Assembly: GCA_040758575.1 (NCBI GenBank) | Contig: JBFLVH010000008.1 | Location: 35,624-99,623, forward strand | DNA from: Bacteroidota bacterium | Lineage (GTDB): Bacteria; Bacteroidota; Bacteroidia; B-17B0; Aurantibacillaceae | Length of the DNA stretch: 64,000 nucleotides | Direction: 5' to 3' | Shown: positions 2,029-13,495 of the stretch, piece after piece | Position numbering within the stretch: the first letter of the stretch is position 1 | How the letters are laid out: the number at the start of each line of letters is the position of its first letter | The notes under the pieces: generated by a model | The model's database searches: none | What the model saw: the letters and a program-made list of their open reading frames with translations, nothing else | Told to the model about the DNA's origin: nothing | Position numbers and translations under genes: made by a program

Positions 2029-2925
2029 ATGTCCATCAGTGTAAAAAATGTTACTAAAATTTATGGTAAGCAAAAAGCCCTGGATAATGTTTCATTTGAA
2101 ATAAAAAATGGAGAAATTGTAGGTTTTTTAGGACCTAATGGTGCGGGCAAAAGCACTATGATGAAAATTATTACAGGATACATTCCCCCAAGTAGTGGAA
2201 TGGTAGAAGTAAATGGTTTAAACATATTTGAACATTCTCTTGAAATAAAAAAACAAATCGGTTATTTACCTGAACAAAATCCTTTGTATTACGAAATGTA
2301 TGTAAAAGAATTTTTAGAGTTTATTGCTAAATTATATGGCATAAAAAGTGTTCATCAGAGAGTGAAAGAAATGATTGATATATGCGGTTTGGAAATTGAA
2401 CAACACAAAAAAATAGGTACACTTTCAAAAGGTTATAAGCAAAGAGTAGGTTTAGCGCAGGCACTTATCCATAACCCATCTGTACTAATATTAGATGAAC
2501 CCACATCTGGTTTAGACCCCAATCAATTAGAAGAAATCCGACAATTAATTAAAACACTTGGAAAGGATAAAACAGTAATGTTAAGCACTCATATTATGCA
2601 GGAAGTAGAAGCCGTGTGTAATAAAGTCATTATTATACATCGTGGTAAAATTGTGGCTTCTGATGATATTCAAAATATTAGAAAATCGGCGGGTACAAAA
2701 AAAATTATTGTTGAATTCTCCATAGCATTGAACAAACAACATTTTGCGGAATTATCGCTTCAAAGCATTGAAAAAATTTCTGATACACAATGGGCTATTG
2801 AAACAACTGATGAAGATATACCTAAAAAATTGATGAACATTGCCATTAAAAATAATTGCAGTATTGTTAGTTTGAATAAGTCAGAAATGAAATTAGAAGA
2901 AGTATTTAAATCTTTAACTCAATGA
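2029..2925 (+). CDS. gldA: Gliding-motility ABC transporter ATP-binding protein GldA
   Basis: Walker A GPNGAGKST, signature LSKGYKQR, Walker B LILDEPTSGLD. The N-terminus MSISVKNVTKIYGKQKAL resembles Flavobacterium GldA as I recall it. gldF-gldG lie downstream on the same strand. Confidence 0.8.
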   Translation: MSISVKNVTKIYGKQKALDNVSFEIKNGEIVGFLGPNGAGKSTMMKIITGYIPPSSGMVEVNGLNIFEHSLEIKKQIGYLPEQNPLYYEMYVKEFLEFIAKLYGIKSVHQRVKEMIDICGLEIEQHKKIGTLSKGYKQRVGLAQALIHNPSVLILDEPTSGLDPNQLEEIRQLIKTLGKDKTVMLSTHIMQEVEAVCNKVIIIHRGKIVASDDIQNIRKSAGTKKIIVEFSIALNKQHFAELSLQSIEKISDTQWAIETTDEDIPKKLMNIAIKNNCSIVSLNKSEMKLEEVFKSLTQ

Positions 2926-3015
2926 TGTGCGGTTATAAAAAATTGATTGTTTTTTTTCAATATTGTCCAAAATGGGTTAATTATTTTTTAAGACAATTTT
3001 ATTTTGAGTGGTTTA

Positions 3016-3050
3016 ATGTTTGTCTTTTGCCTGCGGCAAAAGACAAACAT
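3016..3050 (+). terminator. Perfect 16-bp hairpin downstream of gldA
   Basis: ATGTTTGTCTTTTGCC-tgc-GGCAAAAGACAAACAT. It is GC-enriched relative to its surroundings and has no U-tract of its own. Confidence 0.55.
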
Positions 3051-3058
3051 CTTAAAGA

Positions 3059-3115
3059 CCTCTCCCCTTTAATTCCCCTCTCCTTAAAAAGGAGAGGGGC
3101 TGGGGGTGAGGTTTT
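3059..3115 (+). terminator. Nested GC-rich hairpin followed by a T-run (rho-independent terminator candidate for gldA)
   Basis: Inner stem CCCCTCTCC-ttaaaaa-GGAGAGGGG. Outer stem CCTCTCCCC...GGGGTGAGG has one mismatch. TTTTT follows. Confidence 0.6.
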
Positions 3116-3140
3116 TCCGTGGAAAATATTGGTTTCTTTT

Positions 3141-4001
3141 ATGTTCCTATTGTTTTCTCTTTGTCTATCATTTGCTCAAAATAAAATGGATTCACTTGGA
3201 AGAAAACAAGGATACTGGAAAGTATATTATCCTAATTCCAAACACCTTGAATATGAAGGGTTTTTTAAAGATGATAAACCGCAAGGATTGTTCAAGTATT
3301 ATTATGAACACGATACTATTAAAGCCAAAGTTAATTTTATCAAAGAGGGTAAATATGCTTATGCTACCCTCTATCATATGAATGGAAAAATAATGGCAAA
3401 GGGTAAATATCTGGAACAAAAAAAAGATTCTGTGTGGGAATTTTACAATCAATTAGGACAATTACTCAACAGAGAAAATTATCTGCAAGGTCAAAGACAT
3501 GGATTAAGTATTACTTATTATGACTCAGGAAAAGTATATCAAAAAACACAATATATCTTAAATAAAAAACACGGGTATTTTATTGAATACTTCCCTGATG
3601 GAAAAATAAAAGGAATGGGCTATTACAAAAACGATTTGGCAGAAGGATATTTTGTTTATTATGCGCCTAACGGCACACGAGTTGGACTTATAACTTATCA
3701 AAATGGCGTGAGAAACGGACCTACTGTAATTAAAGATTTAGATGGAAAAATAACTGAAAAAACGCTTTACAAAAACGGTTATCCGGTTAAAAATGAAAAA
3801 GAATCAGAAATGTTTTTTCAACAACATCCTGAAATGCTTCATAATGAATTCGGTCTTGAAAAAGATATAATTAAACTTTTTGAAAACAGAAATGAAAAAT
3901 CATTTTTTATGGATAACATTACTACTGAAAACAAAAATGAACTTCTAAAAAATTTACAGCAAAAAAAATCTAATAATCCTAAACAAAAGATTAAAAAATA
4001 G
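3141..4001 (+). CDS. MORN-variant repeat protein (YwqK-like), secreted
   Basis: Repeated G(Y/L)xKxYYxNGxxxxEGxF-type units (GYWKVYYPNSKHLEYEGFF, GLFKYYYEHDT, HGLSITYYDSGKV, HGYFIEYFPDGKI, EGYFVYYAPNG). ATG at 3141 gives the signal-like MFLLFSLCLSFAQ. The ORF-track start at 2922 runs through the two hairpins. Confidence 0.7.
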   Translation: MFLLFSLCLSFAQNKMDSLGRKQGYWKVYYPNSKHLEYEGFFKDDKPQGLFKYYYEHDTIKAKVNFIKEGKYAYATLYHMNGKIMAKGKYLEQKKDSVWEFYNQLGQLLNRENYLQGQRHGLSITYYDSGKVYQKTQYILNKKHGYFIEYFPDGKIKGMGYYKNDLAEGYFVYYAPNGTRVGLITYQNGVRNGPTVIKDLDGKITEKTLYKNGYPVKNEKESEMFFQQHPEMLHNEFGLEKDIIKLFENRNEKSFFMDNITTENKNELLKNLQQKKSNNPKQKIKK

Positions 4002-4004
4002 ATT

Positions 4005-4028
4005 TAAATGATTCTATAAAATCATTTA
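4005..4028. terminator. AT-rich 9-bp hairpin between convergent genes
   Basis: TAAATGATT-ctataa-AATCATTTA, between the MORN gene stop (4001) and the peptidase stop (4071). Confidence 0.45.
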
Positions 4029-4070: not shown

Positions 4071-5207
4071 TTAAAATTTACCAAGCTCATCATTTATTAG
4101 TTTAAACATTTCTGTTTCAGTTATTTTGAACTCATAATATATTTGCTTTAAACAACTATCTGCATTATCTTTAAAATCTTTTAATCTCAAAAGTCCTTTA
4201 ATACCAAATTTTTTGTATATTACATTTACTATTAATGCTGAAGACACATAAGCATCAGTAGAATTTGGTTTTTCATTAATTGTTTTGAATAAATTTTTAT
4301 TAAATGGATAGTATTTACTTTTAAATACTTTAAGTAAGTTAGAATAAGATTGATTTAAACTTCCTCCAAAAAATGTTGCTATACCTTCACTTAAAAAATG
4401 CCCTGTTTTTATTTTATTATCAACAACAAGATGCACTAATTCATGTGGATAATAAAATATTCCTTTTCCGGAAATTATCATTTTAGCGTCATAAAATGTC
4501 TTTCCAGTAGTATATCCTGCGTAAAAAAAATTAAATCCTAATAAATACCCTAAACTCTCTGGACTTTTACAAACCACAAAATTCACAGAATCTATTTTTG
4601 CTGAAAAAATATAAATCATACTATCAAGAAAATTTTTTGCTTTTTCCATTTCTAATTCATTTGGGTTTAAAGATGGTTCAATAATGTATTTTATTTTGTC
4701 ATAATTATATTTTTTCCAATTTGCTATTCTTTCTTCAAAAAGATTAAAAAGATACAAATTATTGTTTTGTTTTAAAATTCCAATTTCAACAATTGCAAAT
4801 GGGTTGGAGTTTAAAGATGCATTAGTGTCATTTGGCGTAAAATTAAAATGACAAAATGAGGTAGTTATATAGCAAGTATCACCTTGAGAACTAATAGAAA
4901 GAATATATGGTTTAAAATAATTTAGTAAAGATTTTTGGGGATACTGAAATAGAGATGAATAAAACAATGAGTAGTCATTCCCAAATTGTTTTATTTGAGA
5001 TGGTAGCCAATATTTTTTTCTAATAGAATCATTTTCTTCATACAAAAAATTTATCCAAAAATTCAAATACTCTTTACATGAAGATTGATTTAATGAAATA
5101 CTTGCTAAAGAATGTAAATAAAATTTAGGGGATGAGTTCTCTTTTTCTTGTGAAAAAACAAAACTTAAATAAAAACAAAATAAAATAGAAAATAATATAT
5201 GTTTCAT
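4071..5207 (-). CDS. Secreted HExxH metallopeptidase (peptidase MA-like), last gene of the lanthipeptide operon
   Basis: Signal peptide MKHILFSILFCFYLSFVFSQ. HELVH followed 15 residues later by SEGIATFFGG (gluzincin-like HExxH...E, resembling Peptidase_MA_2). Its start overlaps the lanM stop as ATGA (5204-5207). Confidence 0.6.
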   Translation of the reverse strand: MKHILFSILFCFYLSFVFSQEKENSSPKFYLHSLASISLNQSSCKEYLNFWINFLYEENDSIRKKYWLPSQIKQFGNDYSLFYSSLFQYPQKSLLNYFKPYILSISSQGDTCYITTSFCHFNFTPNDTNASLNSNPFAIVEIGILKQNNNLYLFNLFEERIANWKKYNYDKIKYIIEPSLNPNELEMEKAKNFLDSMIYIFSAKIDSVNFVVCKSPESLGYLLGFNFFYAGYTTGKTFYDAKMIISGKGIFYYPHELVHLVVDNKIKTGHFLSEGIATFFGGSLNQSYSNLLKVFKSKYYPFNKNLFKTINEKPNSTDAYVSSALIVNVIYKKFGIKGLLRLKDFKDNADSCLKQIYYEFKITETEMFKLINDELGKF

Positions 5208-8089
5208 AAAGATTTGTAATCTCTTGGTTTATTTGATGTAGGAGGATGGAGCAGTAAAATAGAGGGCATATTATAATCAAATAATAATTTTAATATATTA
5301 TATGCAATACCAGAATTACCCAAAAACAAACCATTCAATGAAAACTTTCCATTTTTAAATCCAGTTTTCCAATTTAATTCACCAGTAGTATCCTTTTTAT
5401 AAATTTCAAACACAATTTTATTTTTTGTTAAAGTTATTAAATTGTGATTTTTAGTTTTATATCCAATCGCCATTAACGTTTCTAAATTTCCTAACATTCC
5501 ATGACATAAACAATGTGAATGTTCGAATCCTTCTTTAAGAATAGTCCCTTTTATTTTATTCCAGTTAATATCAAAGTTAATAGGCAGAAGATTTTCAATT
5601 TCTAAATAAGCATTTAATATACCAGATGAACCATGGCACCAAGAAGGGGATGTTATTAAAAAATCAGAATATCGTAAATCTCTCCAACCTTGATAACTCT
5701 CAAAAAAATAATTGTTATTATATTTTATAATACTATTTAAAAACATAATATCTTTTTTTGTGTAACCAAATAATTCATAATATTTTGATAGAGCATATAA
5801 AATACCTGCATTACCATGTGCAAAACCAACTAAATATTTAAATTTATTGCATTCCCATGTTATGCCATTGGATGTAATAATTGCTGATTTTAGTATTTTT
5901 TGATATATTTTTTGAATAGGTAGTATTAAAGAATTTAGTTTTTCATTTTTATAGTAGTCAATAAGTAAAATCAATAAACCAGAACATCCATTTAATACAT
6001 CTATAAATGTATCAAATCTTATGTTATTTTTAACATATGGAACTAATTTCTGTTCAAATAATTCATTTAAATTTGTATTTTCAATATCGCCAATTATTTT
6101 ACTATAATGCCAATAAAAATAAAGGGTTGAAAATGGAAAATGGTAAGGTGAAAAAAGATAATATGATTTTGAGGGATTAAAATTTTTAAAAGTAAAAAGA
6201 GATTTATTCATAATAGATTGTGCGACCCTTTTGTATTTTGATTCTTTTGTAAATTTATATAAGTATAAATAAAACAATCCCAATCCATCTAATCCGTCGT
6301 AAATTCCAAAATTTTTCGGAGCAAACTCCCATTGACCAACTCTTCCTACATTAATATCTATCCATTGATATGATTTACCTACACGTATCCTATCATTTAG
6401 TACCTTTTCTGCTATTTGAATAATGTGTTTTTTTATTTTTTTCGTATCATAATTATAAGGTAATGAATTATTGTTTAAACTTTTCTTTTCAAGAATCTTA
6501 TTGTCTTTACTTTGTTCAAATTGATAAAAACACGAAATAGATTTTTCAATATATGAAATTTGATCTTTAATTACAGTATCAGATAATTTGTTTATTCTAT
6601 TAACCATCGAATGAAACCCAGACTTTTTTAAAATATAATACCTGTTGTTTTTATCAAAAATAAATTTTTTAAATGGTTTTGTATAAAATATAGGATAATC
6701 TAAATTTTGTAATTCTTTTATTTCAGATTCAATTAATTCCTTTGGGAAACAATCTTTATCATATGAACTATACAAATAATTCAAAATTTTTATTCTTTTA
6801 GAATAACTTTTTAAATTATCTGGATGTAAACTCTCTTTAAGAATTATATTATAGACATTTGTATGTCTCATTAACACTCTAGTACTAATATTATATTGAT
6901 TAATTAAGCTTTTAACAATGGAAATTAACCACTTTTTATTAATCATAATGAATCTACAACAACTATCAAAACCGTCGCAAATTTTCGAGCACATAACATC
7001 TATGGCTATCTTTTTATCAGATTTACTTGGAATGTGATAAGAATATTTAGGAAAGCTTTGAATTAAGTATTCTATCTTTTTGTTTCTACTAAAAAATAAT
7101 TTTGTGTGTGAAGAATGAATTGCTTCAAGGGATATACCACCAAAATTTAATCCTACATTATCTATTTTATTTGGTGTCCAAAAAGGAAGAAGTCCAGTGC
7201 CAATAACAGATTCTTTATAGTAATTTTCAATTAAAGGATAAGTATCGTTAATTGATGATTTTATTATGGGTTTAAATAAACATTCAGTGTCAATAAAAAC
7301 AGGTATTGTTTTCTTTACAATTATATTATCAGCAATTATATCAGATATTCCTAAAGAATAAAATAGAGCAAGGTATTTTCCAATATTCTCGTAATATAAC
7401 TTAACCCCCTTCTTTGAATTATTAGGTACATAATTAACAAACTCTTCCCAATAATAATTACATTTTATTAGCCTCTTTGGAAATATAAAAGGCAAATTAT
7501 AACCTTTTTCATTAATTTTTCTTATAATACATTCAAAAACTAAACTACTTTCATAAGGTTTTACTTTATATGCAATTTTTGAACCAGATTGAAATATTAT
7601 CACTGTATGTGTTTGACCATTGTTGTGAAAATCACCAATTGGCCATTGAATGGAGATGGGCACACTATCTATACCAAAATAATTCTGGATATCTTTTTTA
7701 TCATTTAAAAATCTGTCAATAAGATCAGAAAAATATTTGACATAATTTTGAATTGAAATATCAAGAATTCTTTTGAGTTGAGGATATTTACTAAAACAAG
7801 AATAAAATAATTCTTTTTTTCTAATAAACAAAATATTCTTGCGACCATCTTTATAAGTATCACTTAAGCTATTATATGTGTAAAGTATGGGAAATTTAAT
7901 TAATTCAAAAATTTGTATTGATATTGCTTCTGAAATAGAATTTATAAACAAAATGAGATTTTCATTATAGTTAATACTTTTTTGAAGTAATATAAATACA
8001 CTATTTTTAATTTCATTAAAATCATTATGACTAATTTCTTCATCAAATTCCTTTCTTAAATATTCATCACTTGAAAAATAAAATTTCAT
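5204..8089 (-). CDS. lanM: Class II lanthipeptide synthetase (LanM): N-terminal kinase-like dehydratase plus C-terminal LanC-like cyclase
   Basis: 961 aa. Motifs: GDFHNNGQTHTVIIFQSGSKIAYKVKP, DIIADN...FIDTE, SVIGTGLLP, RVLMRHTNVY. Cyclase motifs: YDGLDGLGLF, GFAHGNAG (H758), SWCHG (C818), CLCHG (C862/H863). Confidence 0.9.
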   Translation of the reverse strand: MKFYFSSDEYLRKEFDEEISHNDFNEIKNSVFILLQKSINYNENLILFINSISEAISIQIFELIKFPILYTYNSLSDTYKDGRKNILFIRKKELFYSCFSKYPQLKRILDISIQNYVKYFSDLIDRFLNDKKDIQNYFGIDSVPISIQWPIGDFHNNGQTHTVIIFQSGSKIAYKVKPYESSLVFECIIRKINEKGYNLPFIFPKRLIKCNYYWEEFVNYVPNNSKKGVKLYYENIGKYLALFYSLGISDIIADNIIVKKTIPVFIDTECLFKPIIKSSINDTYPLIENYYKESVIGTGLLPFWTPNKIDNVGLNFGGISLEAIHSSHTKLFFSRNKKIEYLIQSFPKYSYHIPSKSDKKIAIDVMCSKICDGFDSCCRFIMINKKWLISIVKSLINQYNISTRVLMRHTNVYNIILKESLHPDNLKSYSKRIKILNYLYSSYDKDCFPKELIESEIKELQNLDYPIFYTKPFKKFIFDKNNRYYILKKSGFHSMVNRINKLSDTVIKDQISYIEKSISCFYQFEQSKDNKILEKKSLNNNSLPYNYDTKKIKKHIIQIAEKVLNDRIRVGKSYQWIDINVGRVGQWEFAPKNFGIYDGLDGLGLFYLYLYKFTKESKYKRVAQSIMNKSLFTFKNFNPSKSYYLFSPYHFPFSTLYFYWHYSKIIGDIENTNLNELFEQKLVPYVKNNIRFDTFIDVLNGCSGLLILLIDYYKNEKLNSLILPIQKIYQKILKSAIITSNGITWECNKFKYLVGFAHGNAGILYALSKYYELFGYTKKDIMFLNSIIKYNNNYFFESYQGWRDLRYSDFLITSPSWCHGSSGILNAYLEIENLLPINFDINWNKIKGTILKEGFEHSHCLCHGMLGNLETLMAIGYKTKNHNLITLTKNKIVFEIYKKDTTGELNWKTGFKNGKFSLNGLFLGNSGIAYNILKLLFDYNMPSILLLHPPTSNKPRDYKSL

Positions 8090-8146: not shown

Positions 8147-8386
8147 CTATTCTAAACCTATTGCAAACTCATATCTATCTACAACAAGTTTGAAACCAGA
8201 TGGAGATTCAGAAATATCAGCCTTTTTTATTTGAACTTTAGGTACATCACTAAAACAACAATGTACAACCGTGCCATCACACCCGCTTCCACTACCAGTT
8301 CCAGATGACCCTAATGCTCCATTGTATCTTTCAACTAGGAATTCTAACTCCTCTTTTCTCATTTTAATTACTTCAGTTAAAGCCAT
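8147..8386 (-). CDS. lanA: Putative lanthipeptide precursor (LanA) with a central Cys/Ser/Thr core and a C-terminal leader-like extension
   Basis: 79-aa ORF 57 nt upstream of lanM on the same strand. Core is SSGTGSGSGCDGTVVHCCFS (3 Cys, 7 Ser/Thr). Leader motif FLVERYNGALG is echoed near the C-terminus as LVVDRYEFAIG. Confidence 0.7.
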   Translation of the reverse strand: MALTEVIKMRKEELEFLVERYNGALGSSGTGSGSGCDGTVVHCCFSDVPKVQIKKADISESPSGFKLVVDRYEFAIGLE

Positions 8387-8971: not shown

Positions 8972-9712
8972 ATGAAAGCATTATTTATCAAAGAAATACG
9001 AAGTTACTTAAATTCTCTGACAGGGTTTTTAGTGATACTTGTATTTTTAATTGTAACTGGTTTATTCTTGTGGATAATACCTAATGAAGCAACGGGCACT
9101 AACATTCTTGAAAATGGTTTTGCATCATTAGAAAGTTTGTTTTCCCTGGCTCCTTGGGTGTTTTTAATTTTAATTCCTGCGATTAGTATGAAATTATTTG
9201 CAGAAGAAAACAAAGCGGGCACATTAGAACTTTTACTCACTAAGCCATTAACCGAAATGCAAATTGTTTTATCTAAATACTTTGCAGGTTTTGTAATCAT
9301 CGTATTTTCACTACTACCAACCTTAATTTATTACTACACTGTTTATCAACTTGGCTTGCCAAAAGGTAATTTAGACACAGGCGGCACCTGGGGTTCATAT
9401 ATTGGGCTTTTCTTTTTAGCATCTGTATTTTTGTCTATTGGATTGTTTACTTCTGTTATCACAGATAATCAAGTGATTGCATTTATTTTTGGACTTATTA
9501 TGTGTTATTTATTTTACAATGGATTTGAATATCTGGCTACTTTCTTTTCTAATGGCTCTGTTGCACTTTTTATTTCTTCATTAGGAATTAACTATCATTA
9601 TTATAGTATGAGTAGAGGTGTTATTGATTCAAGAGATGTGCTCTATTTTTTAACTGTCATAACAATTTTTCTATTGCTCACCAGGTTAATTTTACAAAGT
9701 AGAAAATGGTAA
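8972..9712 (+). CDS. gldF: Gliding-motility ABC transporter permease GldF
   Basis: 246-aa ABC-2 type multi-TM protein. N-terminus MKALFIKEIRSYLNSLTGFLVILVFL is GldF-like. Overlaps gldG by 7 nt. Confidence 0.8.
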   Translation: MKALFIKEIRSYLNSLTGFLVILVFLIVTGLFLWIIPNEATGTNILENGFASLESLFSLAPWVFLILIPAISMKLFAEENKAGTLELLLTKPLTEMQIVLSKYFAGFVIIVFSLLPTLIYYYTVYQLGLPKGNLDTGGTWGSYIGLFFLASVFLSIGLFTSVITDNQVIAFIFGLIMCYLFYNGFEYLATFFSNGSVALFISSLGINYHYYSMSRGVIDSRDVLYFLTVITIFLLLTRLILQSRKW

Positions 9713-11409
9713 ATCAAATGCAAAACATTAAATATTCATCAAAGAAAAAAGATATAGGAAATTTTATCGCTTCCGTTATTGCCTTATTAATTATTAATTT
9801 TATTTTGAGTTTTTATTTTTTTAGATGGGACTTGACTGCTGAAAAAAGATATACTCTTTCTCCTTTCACAAAAGAATTTTTGAAAAATATTGATGATATT
9901 GTTTATTTTAAAATTTATTTAAGTGGCGACTTACCACCTGAATTTAATAAATTAAAAAAAGAAGTAAAAGAAATGCTGGATGAAATGCGAATCATTAACG
10001 ATAACATTCAGTATGAATTTGTTGATATTAATAGCGTTGGAAATAAAGAAGATATTAGAAATCTTGAAAAACAATTGTATGATAAAGGCATTGTGCCCGA
10101 ACAGGTAATAGAAAAAAAACAAAATAAAACATCAGAAAGTTTAGTTTGGCCTGGCGCACTTGTGTCTTACAAAGGAAAAGAAACTGTATGGCAAATTTTT
10201 TCAAGACAACTTGGTTATACTCCACAAGAAAACATTAATCACGCACTAAACGAAATTGAATATGGCATATGCAAAAGTATTCACAAACTCAAAAGAAAAA
10301 AGCGTCCTGAAATATCCATAGTTGAAGGGCACAAAGAATTAGACACTCTTCGTTTATATGACCTTATTCGTACTTTGTCAGAAGAATACAATATATCAAG
10401 AATCAATATCAATCATAAATTATATGCACTAAAGAATTTAGACGCTATCATTATTGCAAAACCTGATACACTCATTGATGAAAAAGATAAATTCATCATT
10501 GACCAATTTATAATGAAAGGTGGTAAAGTGCTATGGATGTTAGACCCTGTAAAAATTAATATGGATTCCTTTCGCCTGAAGGGATATTCTCTAGCGCTGA
10601 ACAATGAAACCAATTTAGAAGATATGCTATTTAGATATGGAGTACGACTAAACCCCGATTTAATCCAGGATTTACAATGTGCTGCAATACCTGTAAATAT
10701 TGGCTTTTCCAAAGGACAACCCAATTTTAAATTATTCCCCTGGATATTCTATCCTTTGATTATGCCTACTTCCAATCATCCTATTGTCAAAAATATGGAT
10801 TTGATTAAAACCGAATTCGTTAGCACCATAGATACATTAAGCACATCAGGTATTAAAAAAACCATATTGCTTACATCTTCTAAAAACTCAAGAGTAGCCC
10901 CAGTGCCATTCAGGGTATCGCTGGCTATCACGCAGTTCAAATTAAAAGAAAGTGCATTCAATCAAGGACCTAAACCAATTGCAGTTTTGTTAGAAGGAAC
11001 ATTTAAATCTTTATACGCCAACCGAATACCAACTATAATTATGGAAGACAGCACCATTCAGTTCAAAGAAGTTAGCGTTCCTAACAAAATGATTGTTATT
11101 TCAGATGGAGATATTGCCAAAAACGACATCAACAGAAGCACTGGTGTAATATATCCATTAGGTTACGACAAATATACTAATCAAACTTTTGCTAACAAAC
11201 AATTTATAGTTAATTGCATCAATTATCTATTAGATGAAACAGGACTGATGCAACTTCGTTCCCGTGAAGTAAAATTAAGATTATTAGACCAAAAGAAAAT
11301 AGCACTTCAAAAAACTAAATGGCAAATTTACAATGTGCTCTTACCACCTGTGATAATTAGTATTCTGGTTATTTTACAATATTATTGGAGAAAAAGAAAA
11401 TATACTTGA
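9706..11409 (+). CDS. gldG: Gliding-motility ABC transporter accessory protein GldG
   Basis: 567 aa with N- and C-terminal TM helices and the RWDLTAEKRYTLSP motif typical of GldG. Coupled to gldF. Confidence 0.8.
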   Translation: MVNQMQNIKYSSKKKDIGNFIASVIALLIINFILSFYFFRWDLTAEKRYTLSPFTKEFLKNIDDIVYFKIYLSGDLPPEFNKLKKEVKEMLDEMRIINDNIQYEFVDINSVGNKEDIRNLEKQLYDKGIVPEQVIEKKQNKTSESLVWPGALVSYKGKETVWQIFSRQLGYTPQENINHALNEIEYGICKSIHKLKRKKRPEISIVEGHKELDTLRLYDLIRTLSEEYNISRININHKLYALKNLDAIIIAKPDTLIDEKDKFIIDQFIMKGGKVLWMLDPVKINMDSFRLKGYSLALNNETNLEDMLFRYGVRLNPDLIQDLQCAAIPVNIGFSKGQPNFKLFPWIFYPLIMPTSNHPIVKNMDLIKTEFVSTIDTLSTSGIKKTILLTSSKNSRVAPVPFRVSLAITQFKLKESAFNQGPKPIAVLLEGTFKSLYANRIPTIIMEDSTIQFKEVSVPNKMIVISDGDIAKNDINRSTGVIYPLGYDKYTNQTFANKQFIVNCINYLLDETGLMQLRSREVKLRLLDQKKIALQKTKWQIYNVLLPPVIISILVILQYYWRKRKYT

Positions 11410-11434
11410 TATGGAATAAAATCAAGGAAAACCT

Positions 11435-11449
11435 TCCGCCAGAGGCGGA
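11435..11449 (+). terminator. Short GC hairpin after gldG (weak terminator candidate)
   Basis: TCCGCC-aga-GGCGGA. No clear U-tract. Confidence 0.25.
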
Positions 11450-11480
11450 TGAGTATTCAGACAATAGAAACCACATCTAA

Positions 11481-12266
11481 ATGCAATACAAATATCTAAT
11501 ACATCCTCTTAAAGAAATTATTTATCAGGCAGGACAAAGAATTCTGGAAGCATCTAAAAATTTTGATAAATCAAAAATCATTCATAAGAACACTTATGAT
11601 TTAGTGAGTTATGTTGATATTGAAACTGAAAGATTTTTAATTGAAGAATTATCTAAATTATTTCCTGATGCTGGATTTATTGCAGAAGAATCACATTTAC
11701 AATCCAACAAAGATTGGAATTGGATTATAGACCCATTAGATGGAACAACTAATTTTACAAGGCAATTACCATCTTATGCCATTAGCGTAGCATTAGCCCA
11801 CAAAACCGAAATTCTAATAGGAGTGGTTTACAATATTCCTCTGAATGAAATGTTCTGGGCGGTCAAAAACAATGGAGCTTTTCTGAATGATAAGACAATA
11901 AAGGTATCCAATAATGATTTTTCAAATTCTTTATTCGTTACTGGTTTTTCTGTTTCAAGATTTGATAAAGTAGAGATACATTTAAATGTAGTTAAACAAA
12001 TTATTACGCAAACATTAGGGATTAGAAGATTGGGGGCAGCCGCAGTAGATTTGTGTTATGTAGCATGTGGAAGATTAGACGGCTTTTTTGAATGGTATTT
12101 AAATCCATGGGATGTTGCAGCAGGTAGTTTAATTGCTATTGAAGCTGGTGCTCTTGTCAGTGATTTTTCTGGTCAAAACAATTATTTATTTGGAAAAGAA
12201 ATTGTATCTGCCCAACCCAAAGTTTATCAACAACTACTTCAAATGATTCAAAATTCAACAATATGA
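11481..12266 (+). CDS. Inositol monophosphatase family protein (SuhB-like)
   Basis: Motifs WIIDPLDGTTNF and WDVAAG. 261 aa. Confidence 0.8.
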   Translation: MQYKYLIHPLKEIIYQAGQRILEASKNFDKSKIIHKNTYDLVSYVDIETERFLIEELSKLFPDAGFIAEESHLQSNKDWNWIIDPLDGTTNFTRQLPSYAISVALAHKTEILIGVVYNIPLNEMFWAVKNNGAFLNDKTIKVSNNDFSNSLFVTGFSVSRFDKVEIHLNVVKQIITQTLGIRRLGAAAVDLCYVACGRLDGFFEWYLNPWDVAAGSLIAIEAGALVSDFSGQNNYLFGKEIVSAQPKVYQQLLQMIQNSTI

Positions 12267-13495
12267 ACTTCAAACCCAAAATAATTAACGACCCTGTTTA
12301 TGGTTTTGTGAGTATAAATCATCCAATCATTTTAGAAATCATCAATCATCCGTATTTTCAGAGATTGAGAAGAATTAAACAGTTGGGGCTAACTAATCTT
12401 GTTTATCCTGGTGCATTACATACCCGATTTCATCACGCAATAGGCGCCATGCATTTAATGCAACAGGCCATTCAAACACTTAAAACAAAAGGTATTCGCA
12501 TCAATGATAAAGAAGAACAAGCATCTTTAATAGCCATATTACTTCACGACATTGGACACGGACCATTTTCACATGCCCTTGAAAATACTATTGTTTCAAA
12601 TGTTTCGCACGAAGATATTTCTTCAATACTAATGCACGATTTGAATAAACAAATGAATGGCAAGTTATCTCTGGCAATAAAAATTTTTGAAGACACTTAT
12701 GAAAGAAAATTTTTTCATCAATTAGTAAGCAGTCAGTTGGATACAGATAGATTGGATTATTTATTGAGAGATAGCTTCTTTACAGGTGTAAGTGAAGGTG
12801 TTATTGGAACAGATAGAATTATTAAAATGCTTACAGTTGTCAATGATAAATTAGTAGTAGAACAAAAAGGCATTTATAGTATTGAAAAATTTTTGATTGC
12901 AAGAAGATTAATGTATTGGCAGGTATATTTGCACAAAACAGTATTATCTGCAGAAAACATGCTGGTTAAAATTCTTACACGAGCAAAAGAGTTGGTAAGA
13001 AAATATAATTACGATTTGTTTGCTACACCTGCATTAAAATTTTTTCTACAAAATAATATTGAAAAAGATAGATTTTACAAAGATAAGATGGTCATTGAAA
13101 ATTTTATCAATTTAGATGATAATGATATTATTGCATCTATCAAAGTGTGGACAAAGTGTGATGATTTTATTTTATCTGAATTGAGCAAAAAATTTATCTA
13201 CAGACAATTATTTAAAACAATATTACAAAAAGACGAAATACCACAAAAAGTGATAACATCAATAGAAAAAAGAGTATTAAAGAAATACCATCATATTTCA
13301 ACACAAGAAATAAATTATTTTGTAATCAATGGTAGTGTGAATAATTCTGCTTATGTAAAAAACAAATTTAAAATTGAAATATTTGATGGTAAAAAATTAA
13401 TTGACATAGCCCGTGCAAGTGATAATTTAAATATAGAAGCATTAAGTGGCGAAGTGAAAAAATATTTTTTAAGTTATGATAGAAATATTGAATGA
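12263..13495 (+). CDS. HD-domain phosphohydrolase (COG1078 / SAMHD1-like family)
   Basis: RFHHAIGAMHL, LLHDIGHGPFSH and DTDRLDYLLRDS. ATGA overlap with the upstream gene. Confidence 0.8.
   Translation: MNFKPKIINDPVYGFVSINHPIILEIINHPYFQRLRRIKQLGLTNLVYPGALHTRFHHAIGAMHLMQQAIQTLKTKGIRINDKEEQASLIAILLHDIGHGPFSHALENTIVSNVSHEDISSILMHDLNKQMNGKLSLAIKIFEDTYERKFFHQLVSSQLDTDRLDYLLRDSFFTGVSEGVIGTDRIIKMLTVVNDKLVVEQKGIYSIEKFLIARRLMYWQVYLHKTVLSAENMLVKILTRAKELVRKYNYDLFATPALKFFLQNNIEKDRFYKDKMVIENFINLDDNDIIASIKVWTKCDDFILSELSKKFIYRQLFKTILQKDEIPQKVITSIEKRVLKKYHHISTQEINYFVINGSVNNSAYVKNKFKIEIFDGKKLIDIARASDNLNIEALSGEVKKYFLSYDRNIE

Follow-up and report, generated by a model that had tools for sequence, protein, structure and literature searches.

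A predicted exported gluzincin co-inherited with a class II lanthipeptide synthetase in Bacteroidota

The usual view is that a C39/PCAT transporter both removes the leader of class II lanthipeptides and exports them. The window analysed here, a stretch of 64,000 nucleotides from a Bacteroidota genome, contains a gene for a class II lanthipeptide synthetase (LanM) that is followed directly by a gene for a protein with an HExxH motif. What does this protein do, and does it belong to the lanthipeptide pathway? The first-pass annotation had proposed that it is a peptidase and matures the modified peptide outside the cytoplasm.

The assembly is 100% complete and encodes one LanM and one member of the peptidase family. 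A canonical class II cluster contains a LanT with a C39 domain, and this cluster contains none. The C39 peptidase domain (PF03412) is absent from the whole 100%-complete genome; the same model was matched in 7 of 14 control genomes. The window's genome thus lacks the canonical class II route of leader removal and export, and the HExxH protein is the sole protease candidate in the cluster.

The precursor gene, lanM and the peptidase gene follow one another on the same strand (Table 1), with the precursor gene 57 nt upstream of lanM. On the minus strand, the ATG of the peptidase gene occupies positions 5207-5205 and the TGA of lanM positions 5206-5204, which is the ATGA overlap that had been read from the sequence at the outset. 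A hairpin had also been described downstream of the peptidase gene. It is present and folds, with a 10 bp stem of almost only A-U pairs followed by a T run. However, its folding energy is no better than that of shuffled sequences (z=-0.7) and a terminator scan made no call there, so that as a terminator it is not distinguishable from chance.

Table 1. Features of the lanthipeptide cassette and of the encoded HExxH protein, in window coordinates.
Feature	Position	Strand	Basis
Peptidase gene; 378-aa protein with HExxH...E, predicted to be exported, of an uncurated gluzincin family	4071..5207	-	ORF and translation
LanM, class II lanthipeptide synthetase, 961 aa	5204..8089	-	TIGR03897, E=1e-158; DUF4135 and LANC_like
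Precursor gene, 79 aa; leader-like helix, then GALGSSGTGSGSGCDGTVVHCCF, variable linker, conserved tail	8147..8386	-	Alignment of 12 precursors
ATGA overlap of lanM stop and peptidase start (translational coupling)	5204..5207	-	Sequence
A-U hairpin and T run 3' of the peptidase gene, between convergent genes	4005..4028 (about)	-	Weak; folds
Predicted N-terminal alpha+beta domain, about residues 28-180, NTF2-like	4668..5126	-	Model; weak Foldseek matches
Predicted catalytic gluzincin domain, residues 186-378	4074..4652	-	Domain-only model; Foldseek against solved structures
HELVH zinc-binding/catalytic motif, residues 255-259 (H255, E256, H259), helix 254-266	4431..4445	-	Sequence, alignments, model
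Glu274, predicted third zinc ligand, within SEGIATFFGG, helix 270-281	4386..4388	-	Conservation and model
Sec-type signal peptide, about residues 1-19/20, predicted cut between VFS and Q	5148..5207	-	Hydropathy and family-wide pattern

Two further features of the locus can be recorded. In the surroundings of the cassette (window 2029-4001 and 8972-11409), gldA/gldF/gldG-like genes, an ABC ATPase gene on one side and ABC-2 permease and ABC_transp_aux genes on the other, enclose the three lan genes together with a MORN-repeat gene in convergent orientation. In LanM itself, the active-site loop (residues 250-255, window 7325-7342) reads SDIIADN, and relatives have SDII(S/R/K)DN. Since the usual His is missing in the relatives too, its loss is a conserved trait of this LanM clade and not decay of the window copy.

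The HELVH motif and the Glu within SEGIATFFGG, on which the first-pass annotation had based its assignment of the protein to the MA-clan gluzincins, are both present. In an alignment of 16 close homologues H255, E256, H259, E274, T278, G281 and G282 are invariant, and in alignments of 80 and 134 distant representatives HExxH and Glu274 are invariant or at least 90% conserved. E274 lies 15 residues past the second His (H259), which leaves a spacer of 14 residues.

The protein begins with MKH and a 15-residue hydrophobic stretch, followed by VFS and then QEKE. A hydrophobic N-terminus occurs in 133 of the 143 full-length family members, and in 103 of these a small residue and Gln come directly after the hydrophobic segment. 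In Bacteroidota, substrates of signal peptidase I have this arrangement. The features taken earlier for a cleavable signal peptide are thus family-wide, and the window's protein would be expected to be cleaved at this site.

Gluzincins carry the HExxH motif on an alpha-helix and the Glu ligand on the next helix, within a thermolysin-like, two-lobed fold. An AlphaFold2 model of the full-length protein (pLDDT 89.5, pTM 0.82) has this arrangement. It starts with a low-pLDDT helix (residues 2-21), corresponding to the signal peptide region, and continues with an N-terminal domain whose weak Foldseek matches are RsgI9 NTF2, the PBP2a N-terminal extension and Tai3. The predicted catalytic domain consists of a small beta-sheet, the helix bearing HELVH, the helix bearing E274 and a helical lobe. 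When the whole model was compared with the PDB by Foldseek, M9 collagenase peptidase domains came first (E=5e-6) and M1 aminopeptidases second, and these two groups were the sole strong matches. Modelled by itself (pLDDT 92), the catalytic domain gave high-probability matches to M9 only (TMq 0.55-0.63, prob 0.98-1.00). The predicted fold thus bears out the earlier assignment to the gluzincins, and zinc-dependent hydrolysis would be the expected activity.

The closest solved relatives in fold are therefore the M9 collagenases ColG, ColH and ColT, which are likewise secreted and in which the HExxH helix is likewise followed by the Glu helix. The identity over the structural alignment is 13-17%, and there is no relation at the level of sequence. 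The Glu follows at a spacing of about 27 residues in ColG and of 18 in M1 enzymes; the spacing of 14 in the present protein differs from both. The protein also differs from the collagenases in having no activator, PKD or collagen-binding domains, in carrying an NTF2-like N-domain instead, and in its far smaller catalytic domain of 193 aa.

Searches at the sequence level returned little. The protein has no match in Pfam (E<=1), NCBIfam, PADLOC or, by phmmer, the sequences of the PDB; a faint NCBIfam match to flagellinolysin (E=0.05) is a hint at most. A family profile built from 134 sequences found nothing usable in the PDB, where M1 appeared at E of about 1. The profiles suggested by the first-pass annotation (Peptidase_MA_2, DUF2268, M1-like) do not match the protein at E<=1. 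Among 80 relatives, two graze Peptidase_MA_2 (PF13485; best E=4e-4) and one touches DUF5700 (1e-3). Membership of M1, as in AplP, finds no sign in the protein: there is no GxMEN, the spacer is 14 and not 18, and Pfam Peptidase_M1 is not matched. Nor is Pfam Peptidase_M9 matched at E<=1, so that the likeness to M9 is one of structure alone. Judged by its predicted structure, the protein is an exported gluzincin with an M9-like fold that lies outside all curated families.

An HExxH motif need not indicate a peptidase, since HExxH proteins in RiPP clusters have proved to be oxygenases (PMC12636437). The present protein might then be an iron- and alpha-ketoglutarate-dependent tailoring enzyme that hydroxylates the peptide or cleaves it oxidatively, like PflC, PosC, BpmH or ChlH. 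Against this, a scan of NCBIfam gave no match to the model for such oxygenases (TIGR04267/IPR026337) even at E<=1, and the fold matches hydrolytic gluzincins with Glu as the third ligand. An export signal would also be expected to place the enzyme away from alpha-ketoglutarate. A non-hydrolytic role is accordingly given very little credence.

The family to which the protein belongs is large. A word-indexed search of 5.8 billion proteins gave 16 relatives only, whereas a profile search of 1.84 billion cluster representatives gave 1,077 members at E<=1e-3, of which 295 reached E<=1e-30. Among the 1,077, the best 150 representatives are mostly full-length, with about 380 residues. In the literature, no account was found of this peptidase family or of a cassette of lanA, lanM and an HExxH gene (PMC7268733).

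Is the peptidase gene next to lanM by chance? Loci were gathered from genome, metagenome and assembly collections, 95 in all, and neighbours within 4.5 kb were compared by all-against-all clustering in the first 81. LanM is the sole neighbour family that recurs across distinct loci in this comparison; a conserved alternative neighbour for the unlinked family members was not found. In a peptidase tree rooted on a large unlinked branch (8 representatives, none adjoining LanM), all LanM-linked members fall into one clade of 19 loci with support of 96/97. Directly upstream of the HExxH gene, 12 of these loci have LanM, either intact or truncated by the end of the contig. In two, L006/L007 and L009/L049, all that is left of LanM ahead of an intact peptidase gene is its C-terminal end, a stump 58 or 184 residues long; each of the two was found in two independent assemblies. 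Three are orphans without LanM (L001, L044/L010 and L053). The remaining two were labelled as short of upstream sequence; one of them, L054, has no LanM in its available upstream 1 kb. The sister of the LanM-linked clade is a small group of orphans (L014, L043, L056), in which a link to LanM may never have existed.

A search in the reverse direction started from LanM. Of 401 genomes searched across the phylum, 3 had a LanM match, with the window's own counted among them. This is too rare for a test of co-occurrence, and matches in the protein database and their contigs were used instead. Nine proteins of this LanM clade were found there. All seven that were looked up have the same gene order, a lanA of 80-89 aa, lanM and the HExxH gene, with the last two genes overlapping or a few bases apart. 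The ATGA junction is also present in L008, L011, L009, L087, L088 and L093, so that with the window at least 7 loci have it.

The two proteins have also diverged in step. Across nine loci, pairwise identities of LanM and of the peptidase range from about 82% to about 25% and are correlated at r=0.97 (Mantel test, 0/5000), which indicates that the pair diverged together as a unit. This co-divergence extends to L013, which comes from a high-GC bin labelled Alphaproteobacteria. The co-occurrence with this LanM clade that had been named earlier as a check is thus found in conserved order, in the recurrent junction and in the correlated identities. As far as these comparisons of genes can tell, lanA, lanM and the peptidase gene are inherited as a three-gene unit.

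One reading of the protein does without any such tie. It could be a general periplasmic peptidase with a housekeeping or nutritional role that is merely co-located with lanM. This would agree with the size of the family, in which most members are unlinked to RiPP genes and no other neighbour is conserved. One orphan lineage, L044/L010, moreover adjoins a divergently oriented gene for a peptide transporter of the POT family (PTR2/MFS; L044:3128-4972). The seven clade LanMs that all carry the gene, the repeated ATGA and the correlation across unrelated genomic settings speak against it, and such synteny with deep co-divergence makes chance co-location implausible. This reading is considered improbable. 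The first-pass annotation had stated that homologues which are common and unlinked to RiPP genes would count against a role in the pathway. In part this applies: they are indeed common, outside one clade none of the members with known context adjoins LanM, and inside that clade there are intact orphans in genomes without LanM or precursor. Taking all roles in the pathway together, a functional coupling of the peptidase to the product of LanM is likely.

The cassette appears to move between genomes. Its flanks differ between loci, and in the window's genus it occurs in 2 of 8 genomes, at different sites. At L092 (G006:C19:6000-14654), in one of these two genomes, a second copy of lanA-lanM lies between a tyrosine-recombinase (integrase) gene and a DDE transposase. 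The varied flanks, the few carriers within the genus and these integrase and transposase neighbours indicate that the cassette is mobile and self-contained. In the window, the lan genes have a GC content of 23.7%, against about 30% in the surroundings, which is consistent with insertion. Within any copy of the cassette, no transporter, immunity gene or regulator was found.

Beside the L092 copy, the contig stops in the transposase before any HExxH gene is reached. This copy was not counted as a counterexample to linkage, given the end of the contig and the state of the genome (G006), which is 89% complete with 6% contamination.

Other copies show variation of their own. The most divergent cassette (L013:3355-9107) has an extra 183-aa ORF without a Pfam match between lanA and a LanM of 1,110 aa, and a gap of 239 nt ahead of the peptidase gene; its presence in a bin labelled Alphaproteobacteria reflects either transfer across phyla or misbinning. 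Genes for M16 peptidases of 979 aa lie after the cassette in L085 (L085:10069-13008) and 3 kb upstream in L006 (L006:1919-4858). M16 as a fourth partner of the cassette was rejected: the two proteins are 27% identical, and L054, a sister locus, has an unrelated gene in that place. The M16 genes are probably there by coincidence.

The leader of the window's precursor ends in G-A-L-G and not in a plain double-glycine. Twelve precursors can be aligned, and in all of them GA(L/M)GS(S/T)GTGSG-xx-CD(G/H)T-x-VHCCF is invariant, the junction GA(L/M)GS(S/T)GTGSG being kept even in a precursor of 38% identity. The VHCCF module is followed by a variable stretch of about 15 residues, then by ESPSG(Y/F)KL and a tail. 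In one precursor (L094:1143-1412), an insertion NGGGGQVC adds a Cys ahead of the CDGT motif.

The first-pass annotation had considered removal of a follower peptide as well, possibly at repeated A-(L/I)-G sites. The first of these sites is conserved, but in the two deepest relatives the second is either G-I-G (L085) or absent (L013). Moreover, the tail has a Cys in 10 of the 12 precursors (Tyr replaces it in the window and Ser in L085), so that the C-terminal tail is likely modified core and not follower. The idea of a follower was rejected on both grounds. By its sequence, the tail is probably part of the modified core, and the window's precursor probably forms one ring fewer.

The presence of two conserved modules (GALGSSGTGSG..CDGT.VHCCF and ESPSG(Y/F)KL..C.F.IG), with a variable spacer of ~15 residues between them, suggests another possible site. 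The enzyme could be an endopeptidase that cuts within the modified peptide, for instance in the variable linker, and so yields either a pair of thioether peptides or an opened ring, whether or not it also takes off the leader. There is a precedent in MfuP, an M61 gluzincin from a class II cluster that cuts inside the modified core (PMC10885120). MfuP, however, works beside a PCAT, which is absent here, and the linker has no sequence feature that marks a site of cleavage. A role in processing of the core is therefore regarded as rather unlikely.

The most economical reading is that the peptidase removes the leader in the periplasm, and it is adopted here tentatively. In the cytoplasm, LanM would dehydrate and cyclise the precursor of 79-80 aa. 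With its leader still on, the modified peptide would then reach the periplasm by a host route outside the cassette. There it would meet the Sec-exported peptidase, with its NTF2-like N-domain and compact gluzincin domain, which would cut off the leader within the Gly-rich junction G-A-L-G-S-S/T-G-T-G-S-G or close to it. The peptidase would thereby stand in for the C39/PCAT transporter of ordinary class II systems. The precursor as the substrate, the place of the cut and the meeting of enzyme and substrate in the periplasm are all presumed in this scheme. Its economy lies in leaving export alone to be explained, in a cluster with no other protease.

Evidence for leader removal is provided by the conserved motifs, the predicted gluzincin fold, the export-type N-terminus, the synteny in all seven loci and the correlation of identities. 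To these can be added the absence of a C39 domain from the genome and the invariant junction in the 12 precursors. Being encoded in the cluster and co-inherited with it is likewise what a RiPP leader peptidase should show. The invariant junction can be explained equally well as a recognition element for LanM, and no exporter is encoded in the cassette to bring the product of LanM to a periplasmic enzyme. M9 enzymes cut before Gly in Gly-X-Y repeats. That the junction, read as GAL-GSS-GTG, recalls such repeats is pure speculation.

Metallopeptidases are already known to process lanthipeptides. Proteases described in this role comprise C39/PCAT domains, subtilisin-like LanP, prolyl oligopeptidases, and M1 (AplP-type), M16 and M61 enzymes (PMC10885120). 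The AplP-type M1 enzymes, which remove the leader from class III/IV lanthipeptides, are zinc gluzincins like the protein studied here (PMC10885120). Unlike it, they are cytoplasmic, more than twice as long and often encoded outside the cluster, with GxMEN and HExxH-x18-E; none of these traits is found in the present peptidase, which sits in a class II cassette. MfuP of Myxococcus fulvus is a parallel in setting, since in this Gram-negative bacterium, too, a class II cluster encodes a metallopeptidase (PMC10885120). It belongs to M61, which the present protein does not match; a PCAT works alongside it, and its cut falls inside a ring of the core, not at the leader.

The LanP subtilisins NisP, CylA and LicP have the type of export in common with the peptidase: they are Sec-exported and trim the lanthipeptide once it has left the cytoplasm (PMC10885120). 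They differ from it in being serine proteases of Gram-positive bacteria that always occur with a dedicated transporter. Finally, the LanT/PCAT C39 peptidase-transporters carry out, in canonical class II systems, the very removal of the leader that is proposed for the peptidase. They are absent from the cassette as well as from the rest of the window's genome, where the leader has its G-A-L-G end. A metallopeptidase encoded in a RiPP cluster is thus a kind already known, and what is new here is the family, the export and the class II cassette without a PCAT.

The main difficulty for leader removal is posed by the orphans. A dedicated leader peptidase would be useless in genomes without LanM or precursor and should not be kept there, yet intact copies are kept in L010, L001, L044 and L053. 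The genome of L010 has neither LanM nor a precursor, and the same holds for those of L014 and L015 in the sister group; all three are metagenome-assembled and may be incomplete. The flanking sequence of L001, L044 and L053 contains no LanM. The absence of a RiPP link in the wider family of 1,077 representatives is a further point against leader removal.

The case of L001 is the most detailed. Its peptidase gene is 98.7% identical in DNA to the LanM-linked copy of L087, over the peptidase gene only; the homology breaks exactly at the start codon of the peptidase, and the upstream genes differ. Comparison of L001:5483-8000 with L087:104-4575 points to a swap of the cassette between near-identical strains, in which the sigma-54 activator, lanA and lanM of L087 are replaced by two genes without a Pfam match (254 and 549 aa). 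The genes that flank the orphan peptidase (L001:6302-7951, 9478-10980 and 11159-12562) have no Pfam match either. They include two paralogous secreted proteins of 500-549 aa with a common C-terminal region containing NYPCGHC (a thioredoxin-like CxxC) and, beside the orphan peptidase, a second and unrelated HExxH protein of 467 aa (HEIVH...HESMTEY).

Retention without the pathway is typical of orphan immunity or resistance genes, which makes self-protection a serious rival. In this model the target in the periplasm is the mature lanthipeptide, which the exported enzyme would destroy or trim to protect the producer, and unrelated host proteases would remove the leader. An orphan gene could then also shield non-producers, as a resistance gene in Bacteroidota. 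The orphans do behave like orphan immunity genes: L010 and its sister-group counterparts stand in genomes without LanM or precursor, L001 kept the peptidase gene while lanA-lanM was swapped out, and the genes beside LanM stumps are full-length with intact catalytic residues. A precursor, a modifying enzyme and a translationally coupled protective gene are, moreover, the usual minimal layout of a bacteriocin cluster. Peptidases act in self-resistance elsewhere, as in NSR against nisin, MccF for microcin C and the D-stereospecific peptidases of non-ribosomal peptide clusters. To our knowledge, no lantibiotic producer uses a protease for immunity.

Self-protection would leave two functions unaccounted for, leader removal and export, instead of one. 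Identity between the LanM stumps and the window's LanM is still 51-69%, about equal to that of intact orthologues, and the losses may therefore have come too late for selection on the orphan to be visible. The orphan group L014/L043/L056 perhaps never had LanM to lose. Self-protection, together with its extension to non-producers, is on this evidence judged less likely than leader removal, which stays the favoured reading.

What had been proposed at the outset, maturation outside the cytoplasm, is supported by the export-type N-terminus and by the tie to LanM, but it is opposed by the intact orphans in genomes without LanM or precursor. The peptidase probably cuts the lanthipeptide outside the cytoplasm, and in doing so may either mature or, less likely, destroy it.

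In either role, the peptidase gives functional work a first point of entry into a large family of exported Bacteroidota proteins of ~380 residues that lacks annotation. Through deep divergence, this LanM clade has stayed with an exported gluzincin in a three-gene cassette, here in a genome without C39. If the enzyme is a leader peptidase, it would add a new protease family to RiPP maturation and supply a tool to release this family of peptides. The route by which Gram-negative producers export the peptide would then also need an explanation. If it is instead an immunity peptidase, it would represent a new kind of lantibiotic self-protection, and the first in a lanthipeptide producer to be based on a protease. 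In that case the orphans, and perhaps part of the 1,077-cluster family, would be a reservoir of peptidases that confer resistance to peptide antibiotics.
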